Virus record (IMG/VR): IMGVR_UViG_3300036781_000418
Span: 219,296-283,295 of that record
Length of the DNA stretch: 64,000 nt
Strand: one strand, 5' to 3'
DNA from: a virus
Of the stretch, positions 6,290-50,197 are shown piece after piece; position 1 is the stretch's first letter, and each line of letters begins with the position of its first letter. A model generated the notes under the pieces. The model was given only the letters and a program-made list of their open reading frames with translations. It was not told where the DNA came from and did not search any database. A program made the position numbers and the translations under genes.

Positions 6290-6591
6290 TGGCCACCTAC
6301 GACTCCAAGGCTGAGTGCCCGCTCTGTCGTCGTCCGCTCGGTGACGACAAGATTGAGTGGCACCACCTGACACCAAAGTCCAAGGGTGGTGAGACCACCT
6401 ACCCACTCCACGCGATCTGTCACCGCAAGATCCACGCCACCTTCAACAACGACGAGCTTGCCGCGACGTACAACACGTTCGGTGCGCTGCGGTCCCATTC
6501 AGCAATAGACTCGTTCGTGAAGTGGGTTCGCAAGAAGGACGGCACGTTCTATGATCGGTCAGCTCCAGCCAAACGAAAGAAACGAAAATGA
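6289..6591 (+). CDS. HNH endonuclease
   Basis: C-x2-C ... EWHHLTPKSKGG ... HAICHRKIH; ATG overlaps upstream TAA. Confidence 0.7.
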   Translation: MATYDSKAECPLCRRPLGDDKIEWHHLTPKSKGGETTYPLHAICHRKIHATFNNDELAATYNTFGALRSHSAIDSFVKWVRKKDGTFYDRSAPAKRKKRK

Positions 6592-7303: not shown

Positions 7304-8383
7304 ATGAAGATGCATCTGATTTTCTTGAACGACCACTCTGGCTCAATGCAGGGTATCACGCGCTACGCGATGGCTGACTACAACTCAGTCACCAAGGCCG
7401 CTGCCGACGCCGCAGCCGCCCACAACATCCCCTCGACCTTCACGACAATTTCCTTCGGCAAGTACAACGGTGGCCGCTTTGCAGGGCGTGGCTACGCACC
7501 GATGCTGGAATCCCAGTTCGTGCCGTCTGACATCGCCAAGGCCATGACGAGCTGGCCAGCCGACGGCGGCACCCCGCTGTGGGAGGCCTTGATCCTTGCG
7601 ATCAACACCGCCATGTCGGCGCCGGACTACGCCGACCCTGAAACCACCTTCAACGTCGTGCTGACGACCGACGGCCAAGCGACCGACGATTACGAGTACG
7701 GCGGCGCAGCCCAGAAGCTGATGAAGGAGTGCATCGCCACCGACCGCTGGACCTTCGTGTTCCGCGTTCCGCGTGGTGGTGCTCGTTCGATCATCCAGAA
7801 GGGTGTGGACGAAGGCAACGTGATCGAGTGGGAACAGTCCGCAAAGGGTGTCGCCGATTCGACGGCCGCCACGTCGCGTGGTATGCAGGACATGTACCTT
7901 GGTCGCACGCAAGGTGTCCGTTCGACGAAGACCTTCTACTCGAGCCTGAAGGACGTCACCTCCGCCGACGTCAAGGCCGTGCTGACGGACATCTCAAAGG
8001 AAGTCCAACTCTGGCCGGTGTCAGCACCGGAAGCTGGCACGCAGATCCGCACGTTCGTCGAGTCCCGTCTTAACGATGGCAAAGGTGGCAAGCTGCTCAA
8101 GGGTGGTGCGTTCTACCAGCTGGTGAAGACCGAGACGAAGATCCAGGACTACAAGCTCATCGCCATCCGCGACAAGACGTCCGCCTCGATCTACTGCGGT
8201 GCCGCAGCCCGTGACATGCTCGGCCTGCCGAAGTACGGTGACGTTCGCGTTGCGCCGCAGGACCACGGCAACTTCGACGTGTTCATCCAGTCAACCAGCG
8301 TGAACCGCAAGGTCGATGCTGGCACCCAGATCATGTACTGGCCTGGTGTCGGTGTTGCGTACAAGGAGGGCGCCTCAGCCTAA
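7304..8383 (+). CDS. von Willebrand factor A (vWA) domain protein
   Basis: MIDAS-like LIFLNDHSGSM, TPLWEAL, LTTDGQATDD. Confidence 0.65.
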   Translation: MKMHLIFLNDHSGSMQGITRYAMADYNSVTKAAADAAAAHNIPSTFTTISFGKYNGGRFAGRGYAPMLESQFVPSDIAKAMTSWPADGGTPLWEALILAINTAMSAPDYADPETTFNVVLTTDGQATDDYEYGGAAQKLMKECIATDRWTFVFRVPRGGARSIIQKGVDEGNVIEWEQSAKGVADSTAATSRGMQDMYLGRTQGVRSTKTFYSSLKDVTSADVKAVLTDISKEVQLWPVSAPEAGTQIRTFVESRLNDGKGGKLLKGGAFYQLVKTETKIQDYKLIAIRDKTSASIYCGAAARDMLGLPKYGDVRVAPQDHGNFDVFIQSTSVNRKVDAGTQIMYWPGVGVAYKEGASA

Positions 8384-14168: not shown

Positions 14169-14197
14169 AAAGCCCCTGGTAACCCCAGGGGCTTTTT
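14169..14197 (+). terminator. rho-independent terminator
   Basis: gcccctgg-taac-ccaggggc followed by TTTTT. Confidence 0.7.
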
Positions 14198-14292
14198 GAC
14201 GTTCGTAACTCTGTAAAGTTCCAGCAGTCCGGTCAGGGCTGCCACGCGGACCCTCTAAATAATGCATCGCAACCGCATTACTAGGAGAAACC

Positions 14293-20407: not shown

Positions 20408-20434
20408 AAATAGGGAGGCGTTGCCTCCCTATTT
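20408..20434 (+). promoter_or_regulatory. conserved hairpin AAATAGGGAGGC-loop-GCCTCCCTATTT containing the TAAATAG box, 5 nt before ATG
   Basis: 12-bp perfect stem; second copy at 33591-33617. Confidence 0.5.
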
Positions 20435-20439
20435 CCATT

Positions 20440-21507
20440 ATGACCGCTCTCAAAACCTTCGAGCCAAACACCCTTGGTCGTGACATTGTCCTTGGTGACA
20501 TGCACGGCAAGCTTGGGCTCGTGCAGAAGGTGCTGACCCACCTGAACTACGATCCACAAGTTGACCGTCTCTTCTCGGTTGGTGACCTTGTTGACCGTGG
20601 CGAGGACAACCTCGGCTGCCTACGACTCCTGCGTCAGGGCCTGAACGCCGTACAGTCCAACCATGGCGAGTTCATGTCCCACGCCTACTTCGGTCCGAAC
20701 GACTCGACGTTGGCGATGAACTGGCCCAGCAACGGCGGCATGTGGGCGATCGACCAATGGGTTGAGTGGCACGACTTTCTGCACACCAACAAGCACATGA
20801 GTCAAGAGGCGGCCGAGTTGGCCGAACTTGCTGAGCTCCAACGTGAGCTGCCCGTGCTGATCACCATCAACCACCGCAACGGCAAGAAGTACCACATCGT
20901 CCACGCGGAGTTGCCGTACCTTCGGATGTACGAGCCGATCACGGACCGTCAGCTGTCTGACCCTGCCAAGGTACAGTTCATGTCGGATCGAAAGTATGAC
21001 CGGTACAACCTTGAGCGCTGCTTCCTTTGGCTGCGTGACATGTTCGGCTCGTTCCATGAGGCGGACATGTCGAACGAAGCCGTCTTTAAGCGGCGAGTTG
21101 CGGGAATGGCCCACCACTCGCACATCAACATGCGTGAAATCTTCACGGACCAGCTGAGCCACGTAATCTCAGGCCACACGCCAGTACACCGCCCGTTCAC
21201 CATGGTGGGCCAGACGAACATCGACACGGGCTCCTATAAGGAGTTTAAGTACAAGTGGGCCGGTGTCACCGCGTTGGTCCTAGACGACTGGACCTTCTGG
21301 AAGGCTCGATCCGAAGGTGTCGAGCAGGTTCAGCCGATGACTATGACCTTTGAGGACTTTGAAAGCTATGGACAGAACAATGACGTTCAAGTGCTCCCCG
21401 GAACAGGAGGAGTACATCATGGATCACCTACAACGGGGGACGAAGGACGTCCTGATCCATCACTCGGAACGGACGTGGATTGCGAACCACGTACACAAGA
21501 AGGTTGA
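20440..21507 (+). CDS. Ser/Thr protein phosphatase (PPP/lambda-phosphatase-like)
   Basis: GDMHG, GDLVDRGEDN, SNHGEF motifs. Confidence 0.7.
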   Translation: MTALKTFEPNTLGRDIVLGDMHGKLGLVQKVLTHLNYDPQVDRLFSVGDLVDRGEDNLGCLRLLRQGLNAVQSNHGEFMSHAYFGPNDSTLAMNWPSNGGMWAIDQWVEWHDFLHTNKHMSQEAAELAELAELQRELPVLITINHRNGKKYHIVHAELPYLRMYEPITDRQLSDPAKVQFMSDRKYDRYNLERCFLWLRDMFGSFHEADMSNEAVFKRRVAGMAHHSHINMREIFTDQLSHVISGHTPVHRPFTMVGQTNIDTGSYKEFKYKWAGVTALVLDDWTFWKARSEGVEQVQPMTMTFEDFESYGQNNDVQVLPGTGGVHHGSPTTGDEGRPDPSLGTDVDCEPRTQEG

Positions 21508-22436: not shown

Positions 22437-23540
22437 ATGGAACGATACCTGGTCGGCGGTGCAGTCCGCGACGCGCTGATGAACGTGACACCAAAAGACC
22501 GTGACTGGGTCCTTGTCGGCGCTACGCAGCAGGACATTGACGACATGGTCAAGGAAGGGTACCAGTGGGTTGGTGCCGACTTCCCCGTGCTGATCCACCC
22601 AAAAACGAAAGAGGAGCACGCCCTCGCCCGAGTCGAACGTAAAGTCGGCCATGGCTACAACGGCTTTGAGGTGGACACGGAGGGCGTCACCCTCGAGCAG
22701 GACCTGGCACGTCGCGACCTGACCATCAACGCGATGGCTTGGGACACGAGCCCATCGATGGTGTACGAAGACGACATCATCGACCCGTACGGCGGTCGCA
22801 ATGACATCAAGCACAAGATCATCCGTCACACGACGATGGCCTTCGTTGAAGATCCGCTCCGAGCCCTGCGTGTCGCGCGCTTCGCCGCCCGCCTCAGCTT
22901 CAGCGTCCACCCCACCACACACGACCTCATCAAGCACATGGGAACGTCCGGTGAACTGGAACACCTGACCGACGAACGTGTCTGGGCCGAGGTGAAGAAG
23001 GGCCTAAGCGGTCCGCACCCCACCGTCTTCATGTACCAGCTCTACAACCTCGGCATCATCAAGCACTGCGCAGTACTGCGTGAGGTCTTTCCATGGACCT
23101 ACGAGTTCGTCGCCTACGGCGTGACGAAGTACCTGCGCATGGTCAAGGAGGAAGATCGCTTCGAACTGGGCCTGGCCTGCATGATGGCGTGTGGTGACGT
23201 TGAAAAGATCAAGGCCATTCCGTCCAGGACGAAGAAGGTCTACAACAACATCGGCTACCTGAACGAGATCCATGACTGGTCAAACGTGGCGGCCGACAAG
23301 TTGGTGACGGTCATCACGAAGATCGGCGGCCTACGTGAAGGCACGATGTTTGACGACATCGTCACCTGCCTCCAGCTGACGAAGCCAACGCAGATCGAGA
23401 TCATCGACATCTTGACGGCCAGCCGCATGGTGATGCAGCAAGTTCGAGCCGACCAGTTCCCAGACCTTGAAGGCCAAGCGCTCGGGGCCGCGATGATCCA
23501 AGAACGTGCGAAGCGCGTTGCTGAGCTGTTGTTACAATAA
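22437..23540 (+). CDS. cca: tRNA nucleotidyltransferase (CCA-adding enzyme, class II)
   Basis: [11 protein letters not shown] (GGxVRD), [26 protein letters not shown]. Confidence 0.8.
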
Positions 23541-32737: not shown

Positions 32738-33568
32738 ATGATCAAATCTATCCACACCCTCAAGAACCTCCTCGTGTCCCGCACGATTGAAGTCCGAACC
32801 AAGGCTCGCGTCGCCAAGATCGCCGCCATTCAAGTCGAGCTCCCTCACCTGCTCATCGACATCTCCTCCGCCAAAGCCTCTCCGTACGACACGTCTAAGG
32901 TTGCCGCCGACATGCTCGAGCTGGCCCTTGACCTGCTGCTGACGAACACGGCCTACGACCTCGATGTGATGGTGTCCAACCTTACGACCAAGCTGTCCGC
33001 CACGCTACCGAACATCGTGCCCAACGCGGCCGCGGCCGCCGTCGACATCAAGGATATCCTGAAATCTAGCGGTGCCGGTGCCACGGCCAAGGCCAAGCTT
33101 ATCGCGGACCTTGCGCAGAAGAAGATCGACGCCGCAATGACCGCCTGGCCGTTCGCCAAGCCCACCGTACCAGCTGACACGGTGGACACAACTCGGGCCG
33201 CGAAGAACGCCATGAAGGACGCCATCTTCAACGGCCTTCGGACCAACAGCTCCACCCCGGTTGCACCAACGCTGTCGACGGTGAAGGGCGTACCACCGCG
33301 CAAGGTGAACGGCAAGCCGGCCGTTTGGGCCAACGTCCGCAAAGGCGCTGGTATCACGACTGGCAAGCGTCGCATTACAGGAATGGCAACTGACTACAGT
33401 GGCTTCACGCAGGTGGGCATCGGCAAGGACGCCGCGTGCGGCTGGAAGGTGAAGACCGGCGTGACGGAAGCTCCGTTCCTGACCTTCATCATCGGTAGCG
33501 AGAACGGCGTCAAGGTCTCCTTCGACGAAGCACTCACCTACTGGAACCTCTCGCTCAACGCGAAGTAA
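32738..33568 (+). CDS. hypothetical protein (276 aa)
   Basis: start at MIKSIH; TAAATAG box upstream. Confidence 0.5.
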   Translation: MIKSIHTLKNLLVSRTIEVRTKARVAKIAAIQVELPHLLIDISSAKASPYDTSKVAADMLELALDLLLTNTAYDLDVMVSNLTTKLSATLPNIVPNAAAAAVDIKDILKSSGAGATAKAKLIADLAQKKIDAAMTAWPFAKPTVPADTVDTTRAAKNAMKDAIFNGLRTNSSTPVAPTLSTVKGVPPRKVNGKPAVWANVRKGAGITTGKRRITGMATDYSGFTQVGIGKDAACGWKVKTGVTEAPFLTFIIGSENGVKVSFDEALTYWNLSLNAK

Positions 33569-33590
33569 GCGTCTTTCGGCCGGGTTACGT

Positions 33591-33617
33591 AAATAGGGAC
33601 TGACTAAGTCCCTATTT
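33591..33617 (+). promoter_or_regulatory. conserved hairpin AAATAGGGAC-loop-GTCCCTATTT containing the TAAATAG box, 4 nt before ATG
   Basis: 10-bp stem; paralog of the 20408-20434 element. Confidence 0.5.
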
Positions 33618-33621
33618 TGGT

Positions 33622-33834
33622 ATGCGCAAGACCACTGAACTCGACGAAGACATTACCTCCGGCATCTCACCTTCGAAGCCAGCTTACCCAACGGGGCGCT
33701 TTGACCCTGAAGCCTGGCGGAACGGCAAGGGCCCTAAGAAGGACGACGCTGAGGAAGACAAGGGCAAGACCAAGAAGGTCTTGCCGAAGCGCCGCTCCTT
33801 TAGGGCCTACGTTGACGAGCAAAAGCGCTCGTAA
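33622..33834 (+). CDS. basic hypothetical protein (70 aa)
   Basis: ORF track. Confidence 0.45.
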   Translation: MRKTTELDEDITSGISPSKPAYPTGRFDPEAWRNGKGPKKDDAEEDKGKTKKVLPKRRSFRAYVDEQKRS

Positions 33835-34346
33835 ATCTAGATCAACGCTAAATAGACTACGTGCTTCCCAGTCCTGAATAAGGTTAGCACACCTTCGATA
33901 GTTGAGCTACAATACACCTATCGACGCTGCAACAACATTGGCAATCAAATGAACTTCACTCGCTCCATCAACAAACACAATCGATTCTGGCAACGCCAGG
34001 ATACGACCATGTTTGTGCGCGAGCAGAAGCATGAGATTGATAATAGCACCTCCCCAGGACGGAGGATCAGTACCGAGTAAGATACTCGAACTGTTCGAAT
34101 CTAAACCTGGGGAGCTATGAAAGTAGCTCCCCAGGTCCGTTTTAAGACCGCCTTTGCTTCATTTGGCGGGATATAAATCAAAGACTGCTAAGAAACGACC
34201 GAGTACTCTTCAGGTCGCCGAGCACGGAAAGGGAATGTTGGTAATGAGATCTTGCGTGTGCAAGATCTCATTCTTAGTCACACACGGTGTCGTGCCTAGT
34301 AGCAGGTCCTGCGTAGTAGGTTGTGAGTGTGACTAAGAATGAGAAT

Positions 34347-34421
34347 GGGAGTATGGCGTAGTCGGAAACGTACTTGGCTCTTACCCATGTGTCCACGGTT
34401 CGAATCCGTGTGCTCCCACCA
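34347..34421 (+). tRNA. tRNA-Lys (CTT)
   Basis: acceptor gggagta/tgctccc, loop CTCTTAC, T-loop TTCGAAT, CCA. Confidence 0.7.
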
Positions 34422-34429
34422 TCCAACAT

Positions 34430-34504
34430 GCCTCCGTCGTCTAGTGGCTAGGACATTGCACTTTCACTGCAAGAAAGACGGATCGAAACCGTTCGGAGGC
34501 ACCA
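34430..34504 (+). tRNA. tRNA-Glu (TTC)
   Basis: acceptor gcctccg/cggaggc, loop CTTTCAC, CCA. Confidence 0.75.
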
Positions 34505-35087: not shown

Positions 35088-35179
35088 TCCCTTGTACTCT
35101 AATGGTAAGAGACCTGGCTGTTAACCAGACGTAGTCCGTCTAGAACGGTATGGAGGTTCGAGTCCTTCCGAGGGAGCCA
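35088..35179 (+). tRNA. class II (long-arm) tRNA with anticodon loop CTGTTAA (reads GTT; Tyr-like scaffold)
   Basis: 92 nt; acceptor tcccttg/cgaggga; variable-arm hairpin ccgt-ctaga-acgg; T-arm; CCA. Confidence 0.6.
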
Positions 35180-35183
35180 ACAT

Positions 35184-35258
35184 GGTGCTGAAGCTGAATG
35201 GTTACGCAGCGGTCTCATAAGCCGTGTGTCGTGGGTTCGATTCCCACCTGCACCACCA
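35184..35258 (+). tRNA. tRNA-Met/Ile (CAT)
   Basis: loop CTCATAA, T-arm gtggg-TTCGATT-cccac, CCA. Confidence 0.65.
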
Positions 35259-37774: not shown

Positions 37775-37807
37775 GAAGGGGAACCGAGTGATCGGTTCCC
37801 CTTACTT
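37775..37807 (+). terminator. rho-independent terminator
   Basis: ggggaaccga-gtga-tcggttcccc followed by T-rich run. Confidence 0.65.
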
Positions 37808-38086
37808 ACTTCGCGGTGACCCTTGGTGGTACCCTACTTTCTGGAGCAGCCAGGAAAGCGGAAAGGTCGGCTGAGGTTCCACACAACTGAAAGGAATCGT
37901 TTACCGGTGACCAAAGTTCCGGCAAAACACGACACCTCAGCTGGCCGTGTTCCTATTTGCTTCTCTAAGCAAGTACATTTTACGCAGCGACGTCTTCGGA
38001 TAACACTGCACATTTCAGGTTTAAGAAAGGATGCATCATGATGATCAGCTCGACGCTTGATGCGTCTGGTAAACACACCTCCTAAT

Positions 38087-39223: not shown

Positions 39224-39284
39224 AAATTCCCGGGAGGACGCGCAAGCGTCCTCCTATTTTCGCATCAACAACTGGAGAAAATCC

Positions 39285-40511: not shown

Positions 40512-40592
40512 TGACAGGTGGTGTAATCCGGATGGCAACACACTTGGGCCCAACTTAAGGAGATGCTGGTTCGACCCCAGCCCTGTCAGCCA
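40512..40592 (+). tRNA. tRNA-like gene with atypical anticodon loop GCCCAAC (CCA with C33?) and oversized D-loop
   Basis: perfect acceptor tgacagg/cctgtca, T-arm gctgg-TTCGACC-ccagc, CCA. Confidence 0.4.
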
Positions 40593-42819: not shown

Positions 42820-43116
42820 TTGATGCCGCACTTCACCACCTTGATCTTTGGCACGGGCAACGTTGAAGCGAACCGAGAACTTGATCGGCTTCGGGCACTG
42901 GATTGCTGGGTGTCGGGTGAAGTGCAGCCGACCAGCAATCGCCCACATGTGCATGTAGGCGTGTCGGCACAGGTGGAGCTGCCAGCCCATGGCTACTTCG
43001 TTGATGCCACCTTAACCTACCACGAGTTGGAGCTACGCGCCCAGGTCTTTCCAAATGGACAGATCATGAGCGTGCTGGTTCCAGTTGGTGCGACTGTATG
43101 CGGATATGGATCCTAA
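42820..43116 (+). CDS. hypothetical protein (98 aa)
   Basis: ORF track. Confidence 0.45.
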   Translation: MMPHFTTLIFGTGNVEANRELDRLRALDCWVSGEVQPTSNRPHVHVGVSAQVELPAHGYFVDATLTYHELELRAQVFPNGQIMSVLVPVGATVCGYGS

Positions 43117-44164
43117 GCTGCTAACGCGTGACGACTTCCGAGAGGGGGTCTTTAAACGCGACAACTACAAGTGCATCTTCTGCGGTAAATCCGCAGCTGA
43201 AACGCCTGAGGGCAAGCTCGACGCCCACCACATCCTTGAGCGTCGGCTTTGGCCGGACGGCGGTTATTATCTGGAGAACGGCGCGACCGTCTGTGAGGAG
43301 CACCACCTTGAATGCGAACGAACTATCAAGAGCGTGGAGGAAGTTAGAGCTCAATGCGGTGTATCCAAGATCTGGGTGCCACCGCACCTATACCCCGATC
43401 ATCTCTATGACAAGTGGGGAAATCCAGTCCTTGATGACGGCCGTCGCGGCCGTGGGGAACTCTATCACGATGAGTCTGTTCAAAAGGCTCTCGGAGCTGG
43501 AGGCGTCCTCGACCTCTTCACGTGGTATGTCAAGTACGAGCGGACGTTCCATCTCCCATGGAGTCCAGGACTCCATGACGACGACAAGGCCTTAAAGGAC
43601 TGCTCACAGTTCGAGGGTCAGCGCGTTATCGTGTCCTACAAAGCGGACGGCGAGAACACGACGGGTTACCATGACGGTCATATTCACGCACGGTCGATCG
43701 ACTCCCGTGGTGGTGAGGACCGAGCATGGGTGAAGAAGTTCCTGATTGAACAGGTGTGCTTCAACCTACCTGAAGGCTGGCGGATCTGCGGTGAAAACCT
43801 GTGGGCCGAGCACTCCATCCACTACGACGACCTGAAGTCGTACTTTTACGGGTTTAGTATCTGGAACGAGCGCAACACGTGCTTGTCCTGGGACGAAACG
43901 GTGGAGTGGTTCGAGCTGCTTAGCGTGACTCCGGTCGACGTCCTGTATGACGGTGTATGGGACGAAGCGCTGATCCGGAAAATGGCCTCGCAGGTTGACA
44001 CGGTAAAACACGAAGGTCTTGTGATAAGATTGGCTCGGAGCTTCACGTACGGTGACTTCCGGAAAAGTGTCGCGAAGTACGTCCGTGAAGGGCATGTGCA
44101 GACCACCAAGCACTGGCGTACGGGACGCGCGTTTGTTCCCAACGAACTGGAGCGAAAGCCATGA
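43085..44164 (+). CDS. HNH endonuclease fused to RNA ligase (Rnl2/RnlB-like nucleotidyltransferase)
   Basis: N-terminus CIFCGK...DAHHILERRLW...C..HH; C-terminus motif I SYKADGEN, motif IV HEGLVIRL, motif V-like RKSVAKYVRE. Confidence 0.6.
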   Translation: MVRLYADMDPKLLTRDDFREGVFKRDNYKCIFCGKSAAETPEGKLDAHHILERRLWPDGGYYLENGATVCEEHHLECERTIKSVEEVRAQCGVSKIWVPPHLYPDHLYDKWGNPVLDDGRRGRGELYHDESVQKALGAGGVLDLFTWYVKYERTFHLPWSPGLHDDDKALKDCSQFEGQRVIVSYKADGENTTGYHDGHIHARSIDSRGGEDRAWVKKFLIEQVCFNLPEGWRICGENLWAEHSIHYDDLKSYFYGFSIWNERNTCLSWDETVEWFELLSVTPVDVLYDGVWDEALIRKMASQVDTVKHEGLVIRLARSFTYGDFRKSVAKYVREGHVQTTKHWRTGRAFVPNELERKP

Positions 44165-49696: not shown

Positions 49697-49726
49697 AAGG
49701 GGACCGTAAGGTCCCCTTTCCGTTTT
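49697..49726 (+). terminator. rho-independent terminator
   Basis: ggggacc-gtaa-ggtcccc followed by TTTCCGTTTT. Confidence 0.65.
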
Positions 49727-49737
49727 CAGGAGAACTC

Positions 49738-50118: not shown

Positions 50119-50137
50119 TACCGACCCGGCGACACGA

Positions 50138-50166
50138 GGGAGGCTGAGGGCCTCCCTTCTTCGTTT
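50138..50166 (+). terminator. rho-independent terminator followed by a TAAATAG box
   Basis: gggaggc-tgagg-gcctccc then TTCTTCGTTT then gTAAATAG. Confidence 0.6.
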
Positions 50167-50197
50167 GTAAATAGTGCATTCACTTGAGCTCCTACGA

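Follow-up and report, generated by a model that had tools for sequence, protein, structure and literature searches.

A conserved leader RNA with a short open reading frame and a candidate attenuator precedes a tRNA operon in giant uncultured phages

The leader locus and its relatives

The second tRNA operon on a 64,000-nt stretch of viral DNA (IMG/VR record IMGVR_UViG_3300036781_000418, positions 219,296 to 283,295; hereafter the window, to whose numbering all coordinates refer) is preceded by an element at 33846-34346 which carries, in this order, a TAAATAG motif, a σ70-like promoter, a 43-codon upstream open reading frame (uORF), a GAAA-capped hairpin resembling a terminator (T1), a three-helix middle domain and two perfect hairpins (P1 and P2), the second of which abuts tRNA-Lys(CTT), the first gene of the array (Table 1). 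This element is very likely a conserved cis-acting RNA leader of the operon, and its 5' half has the parts of a candidate ribosome-mediated attenuator. Nearly all genes of the window lie on the + strand and its GC content is about 57%; a protein identical to one of the window's is encoded on a 342,591-bp JGI contig.

The region had been described in an initial annotation, made by a model that saw only the letters and a list of open reading frames (ORFs), as poor in ORFs and packed with inverted repeats. The first statement holds for long ORFs and fails for short ones: the ATG-initiated uORF, present in every relative, had been overlooked. As for the repeats, each one exists and is longer than reported, since the hairpin given as 12 bp (34106-34135) has 13 bp, or 14 if the U.G pair closing the GAAA loop is counted, the 9-bp palindrome (34246-34269) has 13 and the 17-bp repeat with a 43-nt loop (34267-34343) has 18; the last ends 2 nt, rather than 4, before tRNA-Lys, which begins at 34347. 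A fourth complementarity, between CTCCCCAGG (34050-58) and CCTGGGGAG (34106-14), was missed and emerged from our repeat search; it is central to what follows.

Over about 500 nt, the same order of parts recurs in 12 contigs of uncultured phages (the window, L003, L040, L037, L036, L054, L055, L057, L059, L060, L061 and L062). A tRNA array recognized by ARAGORN lies directly 3' of the element in 11 of these loci, and the remaining contig, L003, stops within an unannotated tRNA-Lys homologue; the first annotated tRNA downstream is Lys(CTT) in 10/12 loci and Phe in L036 and L060. The genes upstream vary among loci, and the element is single-copy in the nine loci checked. In the closest relative (contigs L002-L004) the leader shows 83% nucleotide identity, against 49% amino acid identity for the adjacent 276-aa protein, so that the leader is far more conserved than its coding neighbours; this relative is the only one that the 276-aa protein has among 5.8 billion proteins. 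The initial annotation had set its proposals against a simple 5' leader lacking conservation: the element is indeed a 5' leader, and a strongly conserved one.

Pattern scans built from conserved pieces yielded L036 and L037, then L040, and then L054, L055 and L057, and a profile of eight uORF peptides detected homologues in public metagenomes, from which four contigs were retrieved (L059-L062). A first metagenome pattern search gave no match, 17-mer and 16-mer scans of viral contigs returned chance matches only, and the element is absent from 50,697 GenBank phage records searched with blastn and tblastn. Two candidates were discarded, namely L056, a chance match within a coding region, and Tunturiibacter phage Tunturi_5 (L058), which is the best match at the tRNA level while its intergenic sequence differs. 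Rfam cmscan with 4227 families found tRNAs only, and within 33560-34430 nothing but tRNA-Lys exceeded 17 bits, even at E ≤ 10; tmRNA, RNase P RNA and other known RNAs (6S, T-box, GOLLD, ROOL and leader families) were thus without an Rfam match, ARAGORN reported no tmRNA, and the small ORFs of the stretch were not recognized by Pfam or PHROGs. As far as these searches show, the leader family is so far undescribed, its hosts being giant uncultured phages of the ~310-345 kb class.

Table 1. Features of the leader and related sites (window coordinates unless a contig is named)
Feature	Position	Strand	Description	Basis
Candidate phage-specific promoter element	33846..33855	+	CGCTAAATAG	motif counts, alignment
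σ70-like promoter	33884..33913	+	TTAGCA-18 nt-TACAAT	promoter scan
ATCGAC box	33914-33927	+	ACACCTATCGACGC, after promoter	alignment
uORF	33949..34080	+	43 codons, MNFTRSINKHNRFWQRQDTTMFVREQKHEIDNSTSPGRRISTE	ORF search, conservation in 12 relatives
H_orf	33971..34016	+	hairpin inside uORF, contains AATCGATTCTGGCAA	independent folding of homologues
H_A	34049..34065	+	small hairpin (CCTCC/GGAGG) holding segment A (CTCCCCAGG, 34050-58)	
H_stop	34065..34096	+	hairpin enclosing uORF stop codon (34078-80)	independent folding
T1	34105..34146	+	13-14-bp hairpin, GAAA loop (34105-34136), tail CCGTTTTAAG (CCGUUUU)	repeat search
Inverted repeat 1	34105-34117 / 34124-34136		13 bp, 100% complementary	repeat search
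Middle domain	34148..34240	+	three helices	covariation
M1 hairpin	34148-34170	+	part of middle domain	
Stem M0	34186-89/34221-24	+	part of middle domain	
Stem M2	34196-200/34213-17	+	part of middle domain, loop GAGTACTCTTCA	
Purine-rich stretch	within 34148..34240	+	part of middle domain, GGAAAGGG	
P1	34243..34272	+	13-bp hairpin, loop GTGT, then U-rich run	repeat search
Inverted repeat 2	34243-34255 / 34260-34272		13 bp, 100% complementary	repeat search
P2	34266..34344	+	18 perfect bp, structured 43-nt apical part	repeat search
Inverted repeat 3	34266-34283 / 34327-34344		18 bp, 100% complementary, 43 nt separating arms	repeat search
tRNA-Lys(CTT)	34347..34421	+	first gene of array	ARAGORN, Rfam
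TAAATAG copies	1698, 7240, 9810, 20407, 26614, 32648, 33590, 33849, 36398, 37479, 38168, 40067, 50168, 53039	+		
Long tRNA-Asn(GTT)	window 35088-35179; L040 137-228; L057 8466-8553; L061 8291-8385; L062 8126-8213			

RNA structure on the strand of the tRNA genes

The 512-nt stretch has a minimum free energy (MFE) of -178.7 kcal/mol, compared with -136.9 ± 6.1 kcal/mol for dinucleotide shuffles (z = -6.9), and none of 100 shuffles equalled it. When each homologue is folded alone, the same helices appear in the same places. In the middle domain, 90.8% of the alignment cells are paired across eight sequences, against 24-45% when partners are slid, and none of 500 shuffles scored as high; both sides have changed in 8/15 pairs, and M2 occurs as six different stems among the aligned sequences. 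A single-stranded box, (G)ATAYAA(R) at 34171-34179, follows M1 in 8/8 sequences and is not at a workable distance from any -35 box. RNAalifold also proposed, with weak support, that the U-run of T1 pairs over a long range with the purine-rich stretch. P1 and P2 were measured on individual sequences: P1 is a hairpin in every relative, with a sequence unrelated from lineage to lineage and a gap of 0 nt to P2, and P2, the hairpin abutting the tRNA gene, is kept as a structure throughout, with 12-19 contiguous perfect bp and 1-7 nt to the first tRNA. The base of P2 (GUCAUUCUU/AAGAAUGAC) is conserved in sequence and its distal half covaries. With these dimensions, and stacked on P1, P2 is a candidate RNase III stem, of which about two helical turns of near-perfect duplex beside a mature stable RNA would be expected. 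Finally, cells with G.U pairs outnumber those with A.C (17 vs 3), from which it follows that the helices belong to the strand that encodes the tRNAs.

Replication origin and packaging site had both been among the functions proposed for the region, and a recombination hotspot with cruciform-forming repeats would be a further possibility at the DNA level. Such an element would be consistent with the long perfect inverted repeats and with the contigs of the closest relative all ending here. It would, however, be expected to function as DNA, whereas what is conserved is RNA base-pairing: stems are retained through G.U pairs workable only in the + strand RNA, compensatory changes preserve RNA helices, and the element always faces the tRNA array in the direction of transcription. 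Iterons and families of direct repeats were absent from the results of the repeat search, in which direct repeats were short and came in two copies only; nor does the element have an AT-rich unwinding region, and the curve of cumulative GC skew does not turn at 34 kb. Taken together, a DNA-level function is extremely improbable. A signal for processing of the tRNA precursor, or a small RNA, had also been suggested, and here the direction was right, in that a + strand RNA is tied to the array both in position and in evolution; the uORF, the pair of terminator and antiterminator, and the existence of a family had escaped notice. With regard to the contig ends, L002 (end 11321), L003 (end 2608) and L004 (end 1687) all break off inside P2 or tRNA-Lys, which suggests that assemblies break at this junction of hairpin and tRNA.

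A conserved short open reading frame

In all 12 sequences the uORF starts with an ATG (usually MN...) and continues for 41-46 codons; neither of the other two frames stays open as far as segment A, the window being the exception among the sequences checked. Homologous proteins of 42-50 aa number at least 19 among those called in public metagenomes, and the uORF accompanies a tRNA array in 12/12 loci despite the varied upstream genes. The peptide follows the consensus M-N-x4-6-K-T-N-R-F-W-Q-(E/Q)-C-Q-R-F-D-x-A-Q-x2-4-K-H-E-I-x-T-D-x2-P-Q-A-G-G-x3. Constraint at the protein level is modest, with a ratio of nonsynonymous to synonymous changes (pN/pS) of 0.61 when summed over lineage pairs, 0.4-1.0 per pair and 0.3-0.65 for the most divergent member; for this reason, the coding capacity is argued chiefly from the open frame that has been kept and from changes that are synonymous and compensatory at once. 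The latter are found in H_orf, which reappears on folding each homologue separately and whose AATCGATTCTGGCAA is invariant in 9/12 sequences. In L060 it carries TTC->TTT, CAA->CAG, TGC->TGT and CAG->CAA, all of them synonymous, and the first and last of these are also compensatory, preserving the apical stem; thus, both the protein code and the hairpin are under selection. At H_stop, each homologue, folded alone, has a hairpin at the same place with a different sequence every time.

Two further ORFs of the stretch were considered and rejected. One is a 60-codon ORF from a TTG (34154-34336), within which the closest relative has +1 and +25-nt indels, and the other a 19-codon ORF starting at an ATG beside the T1 loop, which has only nine codons in L003 and an ACG in place of the ATG in L036.

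A terminator-like hairpin and an alternative pairing

T1 is GC-rich, capped by GAAA and 13-16 bp long across the family, and it is followed by GUYGUUUY. In the 12 sequences, 93.5% of its cells are paired, compared with 34-58% for slid partners, and four pairs show compensatory changes (A-U to U-A; G-C to A-U). It resembles the terminators at gene ends of the window, such as 49697-49718 followed by TCCGTTTTCAGG, which are GNRA-loop hairpins, then YCCGUUUU or CUUCGUUU, often then TAAATAG. In L057, T1 lacks the CAGG end of its 3' arm and has gained a canonical U-tract, UUUUUGUUUU; an AT-rich insertion of ~115 nt (~6300-6415 of that contig) follows directly after it.

As for the gene-end hairpins themselves, those with tetraloops lie at 49697-49729, 50136-50167, 39232-39267, 37776-37815 and 14169-14207, three of the five being of GNRA type (GTAA, GCAA and GTGA). 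Tails of YCCGUUUU or CUUCGUUU occur on two (49697-49718 and 50136-50158), with TAAATAG directly after the latter, and the whole amounts to a recognizable phage terminator style.

Segment A, at the 3' end of the uORF, lies in a small hairpin, H_A, whose stem varies by lineage. Its core CCCCAGG is identical in 11/12 sequences (CCCCGGG in L059) and translates to S-P-G in the lineage of the window and to P-Q-A in the others; being kept across two reading frames, it must be constrained as nucleotides and not as amino acids. CCCCAGG is complementary to CCUGGGG in the 5' arm of T1, which constitutes segment B. In a fold of the nascent RNA, taken from the uORF start to the T1 loop and hence before the 3' arm exists, the MFE structure contains all seven core A:B pairs in 12/12 sequences. 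The stop-codon hairpin lies enclosed within this helix, which in the first eight sequences reaches 8-11 bp and has a duplex energy between -17 and -23 kcal/mol. Covariation support for A:B is thin, but goes in the right direction: the A->G change in the L059 core keeps a G.U pair with B and breaks the identity with the third segment, C, and one flank pair changes from U-A to G.U, the other flank pairs being lineage-specific or lost. In addition, a regular spacing is kept in 12/12 sequences: from the start of CCCCAGG it is 24-33 nt to the first base of the stop codon, and from that base another 25-30 nt to the beginning of B. On reaching the end of the uORF, a ribosome would thus be placed between the two segments.

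A regulator other than the ribosome would also be conceivable, in the form of a protein or of a direct, T-box-like tRNA contact controlling read-through of T1 and/or of P1 with its U-rich run, the contact site being CCCCAGG, the middle domain or the hairpin with the invariant AAUCGAUUCUGGCAA. The latter sequence is kept nucleotide for nucleotide, more strictly than coding would demand, the base of P2 is conserved in sequence, and P1 followed by UCAUUCUU resembles a second, weak terminator after a folded domain, as in riboswitches. On the other hand, neither a T-box nor any other riboswitch was matched, specifier-loop and T-box bulge motifs were not recognized, and the L059 change, which breaks the A/C identity and keeps A:B, argues against one protein reading the same motif twice; such a regulator is therefore very unlikely.

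The codons of the uORF match the downstream tRNAs

For the comparison of the uORF with the array, the head comprises the codons at which a ribosome, by its A site, would not yet reach CCCCAGG, and the tail comprises the rest; a codon counts as decodable if it can be read, by standard wobble rules, by a tRNA that ARAGORN finds downstream in the same locus. In the seven phages of Table 2, 53-93% of head codons are decodable, as opposed to 23-56% of the codons in their own genes. Gene windows of equal length reach the uORF value in 13/7803 cases in the window and 8/2610 in L059, and in none of 2327, 1781, 2105, 3110 and 2944 in the other five phages, that is, in ≤0.3% of cases. Shuffling the whole uORF at constant mononucleotide composition gives P ≤ 0.0002, the scores of the two alternative frames are 0.21-0.62, and the tails, constrained by RNA pairing, score much lower than the heads. 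L059-L062 were tested once the rule was fixed. The misses in the head of the window are CGC (three times), CGA and TCC (once each); L037, L054, L055, L057, L059 and L061 carry a tRNA-Arg(ACG) in their arrays, and the window has none. That the uORF senses the supply of the tRNA species of the array is a tentative reading of these figures.

Table 2. Decodability of uORF head codons by the tRNAs downstream
Locus	Head codons decodable	Background in the same phage's ORFs
Window (array 2 only)	24/29	0.52
L054	27/29	0.56
L057	26/29	0.55
L061	26/29	0.53
L062	25/30	0.51
L059	23/31	0.46
L060 (8 tRNAs on locus)	17/32	0.23

Predicted mechanism and competing explanations

Of the four features by which an attenuator can be recognized in a sequence, three, namely a leader ORF, an alternative pairing and operon-related codons, are found here, and for the fourth, an intrinsic terminator between the ORF and the genes, T1 is a candidate. 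It is predicted, on computational grounds and with the arguments for and against about evenly balanced, that the element acts as a ribosome-mediated attenuator. From the arrangement we infer translation of the uORF, termination at T1, the direction of the switch and the roles of nucleases, as follows. Transcription would start from the host-type promoter, from the phage TAAATAG motif, or from both, and the RNA would bear the uORF, at whose 3' end segment A could pair with segment B. If translation proceeds smoothly, the ribosome would be between A and B while T1 is being made, A:B would be blocked, T1 would fold, and transcription would stop before the tRNAs. If, instead, the ribosome stalls within the first ~30 codons, almost all of which would be decoded by downstream phage tRNAs, A:B would pair, T1 would be prevented, and the polymerase would enter the array. 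The net effect would be negative feedback, with phage tRNA synthesis rising when those species run short. After read-through, the middle domain would fold together with the coaxial P1 and P2 abutting tRNA-Lys, and the most likely role of these two hairpins would be in 5' processing, as a guide or an insulator (cleavage of RNase III type followed by RNase P).

In its fullest form, this model is one of a polyvalent sensor, in which the ~30 codons would sample all downstream tRNA species and a shortage of any of them would stall the ribosome and switch on the array; this is possible, though somewhat doubtful. The shortage could come from host anticodon nucleases, from other tRNA-targeting defences, or from the phage itself degrading host tRNA. 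Feedback on tRNA supply would make sense in a phage whose genes include those for an RNA ligase, a CCA-adding-type enzyme and a phosphoesterase.

A number of observations weigh against the attenuator. The U-run of T1 is short (3-5 U) and usually lies 2-3 nt past the stem, and a generic terminator scan did not flag T1. With the 3' arm present, T1 beats the A:B state by 8-24 kcal/mol in the first eight sequences, and its loop-proximal pairs are a possible toehold for the displacement of A; the trp terminator is likewise more stable than its antiterminator. The bases of A:B are mostly invariant, with only two informative changes, and two flank pairs are lost in some lineages. The Shine-Dalgarno sequence of the uORF is weak, at -1.5 to -4.2 kcal/mol compared with a gene median of -5.6. 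The peptide core (NRFWQxCQ, KHEI and PQxGG) is conserved beyond the needs of a pure sensor, and the uORF product may be a functional peptide. Regarding the codon match, the split into head and tail was devised after the first three sequences had been seen, the tests are not independent because the lineages share the uORF core, and the four Arg codons of the window uORF (CGC three times and CGA) have no matching tRNA in the window. Lastly, the middle domain and the sequence-conserved base of P2 play no part in the attenuator model.

Alternatively, two unrelated neighbours may simply be juxtaposed, namely a small phage gene for a 43-aa protein ending in T1 and a processing or stability leader formed by the middle domain, P1 and P2, with no coupling between them, the tRNAs being transcribed by leaky read-through or from an unrecognized promoter after T1. 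A peptide core conserved at the amino acid level with synonymous changes, the little covariation in A:B, and the frequency of gene-end terminators of the same style in the window are in favour of this reading, and L057, with a strong U-tract on T1 and then the ~115-nt insertion, looks as if the halves were separable. Yet in 12/12 loci, whatever the upstream genes, the small ORF comes with a tRNA array, CCCCAGG has been retained in the lineage of the window although it is read in another frame there, the stop codon always keeps the distances given above from CCCCAGG and B, and no promoter-like site is seen between T1 and the tRNA; moreover, the codon match would be left unexplained. We consider two uncoupled neighbours to be rather unlikely.

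The absence of a role for the middle domain in the attenuator also brings into view a stable, structured RNA acting in trans, made up of the leader or of its 3' ~200 nt, which would be co-transcribed, released by RNase P at tRNA-Lys and protected by P2, much as the tRNA cluster of T4 yields the stable RNAs C and D, or on the model of the GOLLD and ROOL RNAs. The middle domain has the strong covariation and the conserved unpaired nucleotides that such an RNA might show, and P2 would provide it with a nuclease-resistant 3' end. Against it stand the lack of any Rfam family match even at E ≤ 10, a size of only ~200-430 nt with a conserved ORF inside, and its failure to account for the A:B/T1 arrangement or the codon match. 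A trans-acting RNA thus seems unlikely, and it would be compatible with the attenuator rather than exclusive of it.

Promoter signals and other features of the tRNA arrays

The TAAATAG box reported at 33849 is indeed present. At the head of the element, CGCTAAATA occurs in 8/8 aligned sequences, and also upstream of the uORF in L059-L062. In the window, TAAATAG has 14 copies on the + strand and one on the - strand, all of them intergenic; it often takes the form CG[CT]TAAATAG and lies 10-40 nt before start codons or tRNAs, and it is probably a phage promoter element. The σ70-like -35/-10 pair and the ATCGAC box are kept in 7/8 aligned relatives, L036 being the one in which they are missing. 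A promoter between T1 and the tRNA was sought and rejected, as neither TAAATAG nor a σ70-like site is present there and the ATAYAA box has no -35 box at workable spacing. Two hairpins elsewhere in the window, 33586-33622 and 20408-20434, carry TAAATAG in the 5' arm (TAAATAGGGACT.. / AAATAGGGAGGC..), and their 3' arms stop at, or 5 nt before, an ATG (33622; 20440); the former hairpin is conserved in L002/L003. Both may be combined sites of termination, promotion and translational control.

The window contains 27 tRNAs according to ARAGORN and two more according to Rfam, one at 35184-35255 (53.5 bits, anticodon CAT) and an odd one at 40512-40589 (36.6 bits) which also matches the 'skipping-rope' RNA weakly. 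The tRNA-Asn(GTT), 88-95 nt long, has a long extra segment that is unusual for tRNA-Asn and conserved across these phages. In L062 (~7395-7530), a tRNA-like sequence, GGTGATTTGGTGTAATGG...GGGTTCGAATCCCACGATCACCACCA, lies between P2 and tRNA-Lys and is interrupted by ~60 nt; ARAGORN made no call there, and the interruption may be an intron. L036 has an ORF inserted between its first tRNA (Phe) and tRNA-Lys (380-910, - strand), and HNH-type genes within tRNA arrays are found also in L058, where an HNH endonuclease is annotated.

A gene set of tRNA repair type lies near the arrays of the window, comprising an RNA ligase (43085-44164), a nucleotidyltransferase of PolyA_pol/CCA-adding type (22437-23540) and a metallophosphoesterase (20440-21507). 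The RNA ligase is 62% identical to that of the Ralstonia jumbo phage RsoM2USA and ~58% identical to those of Caulobacter Bertelyvirus phages. Tunturi_5 and L062 likewise encode tRNA-related enzymes (tRNA splicing ligase and PTH2).

Relation to known systems and biological meaning

Among characterized regulators, the leader-peptide attenuators (trp, his, leu, thr, ilv and pheA, as well as pheST with its pheM leader) come closest, since they too have a short leader ORF, rich in codons tied to the product of the operon, and an upstream segment able to pair with the 5' arm of a hairpin before the genes, depending on where the ribosome is; for their intrinsic terminator, T1 is the candidate counterpart. 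In contrast, they control enzymes or a synthetase, whereas the element precedes tRNA genes, and in a phage; they contain a run of one amino acid, whereas the uORF has a mix of ~12 amino acids mirroring the whole array; and they do not have a three-segment arrangement (A, B and C) in which a hairpin separating A from B holds the stop codon. By sequence and by Rfam, the element is unrelated to them. T-box riboswitches are alike in that a leader RNA couples the state of the tRNA pool to read-through of a terminator, but in them a specifier loop and a T-box bulge make direct contact with uncharged tRNA, and the genes under control are synthetase or amino acid genes, whereas here the likely sensor is a translated ORF.

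RNase III stems stand next to mature RNAs in rrn leaders and in the T4 tRNA precursor. The leaders of rRNA operons and the precursor of the T4 tRNA cluster are comparable to the 3' part of the element, where a long perfect duplex (P2 on P1) is placed directly 5' of the first stable RNA; unlike in those stems, the base of P2 is conserved in sequence, U-rich and doubles as the tail of P1, and its cleavage is putative. GOLLD and ROOL, structured non-coding RNAs of phages and prophages, are likewise neighbours of tRNA genes (PMC5737381). Both exceed the element in size by far (581 nt on average for ROOL, and still more for GOLLD), have no ORF and adopt other folds, and their covariance models gave no match here.

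A literature search covering 8 million papers returned no description of a leader or attenuator for phage tRNA arrays. The arrays themselves are now regarded as a means of countering host defences which cleave or deplete tRNAs (PMC10264068, PMC11555353), a view with which the inferred feedback would be in keeping. If the polyvalent-sensor form of the model is true, the element would be the first attenuator known to control tRNA genes and would represent a built-in feedback loop in the conflict between phage and host over tRNAs. Classical attenuation would thereby be extended to RNA genes and to a multi-codon sensor, giving the arrays a control logic, and the element could serve as a compact, portable part that reports on how well many tRNA species are supplied simultaneously. 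Even without the sensor, it represents a new and well-supported family of structured RNA with a dual-coded ORF, one that indicates where tRNA operons begin in giant phages of a little-known group.

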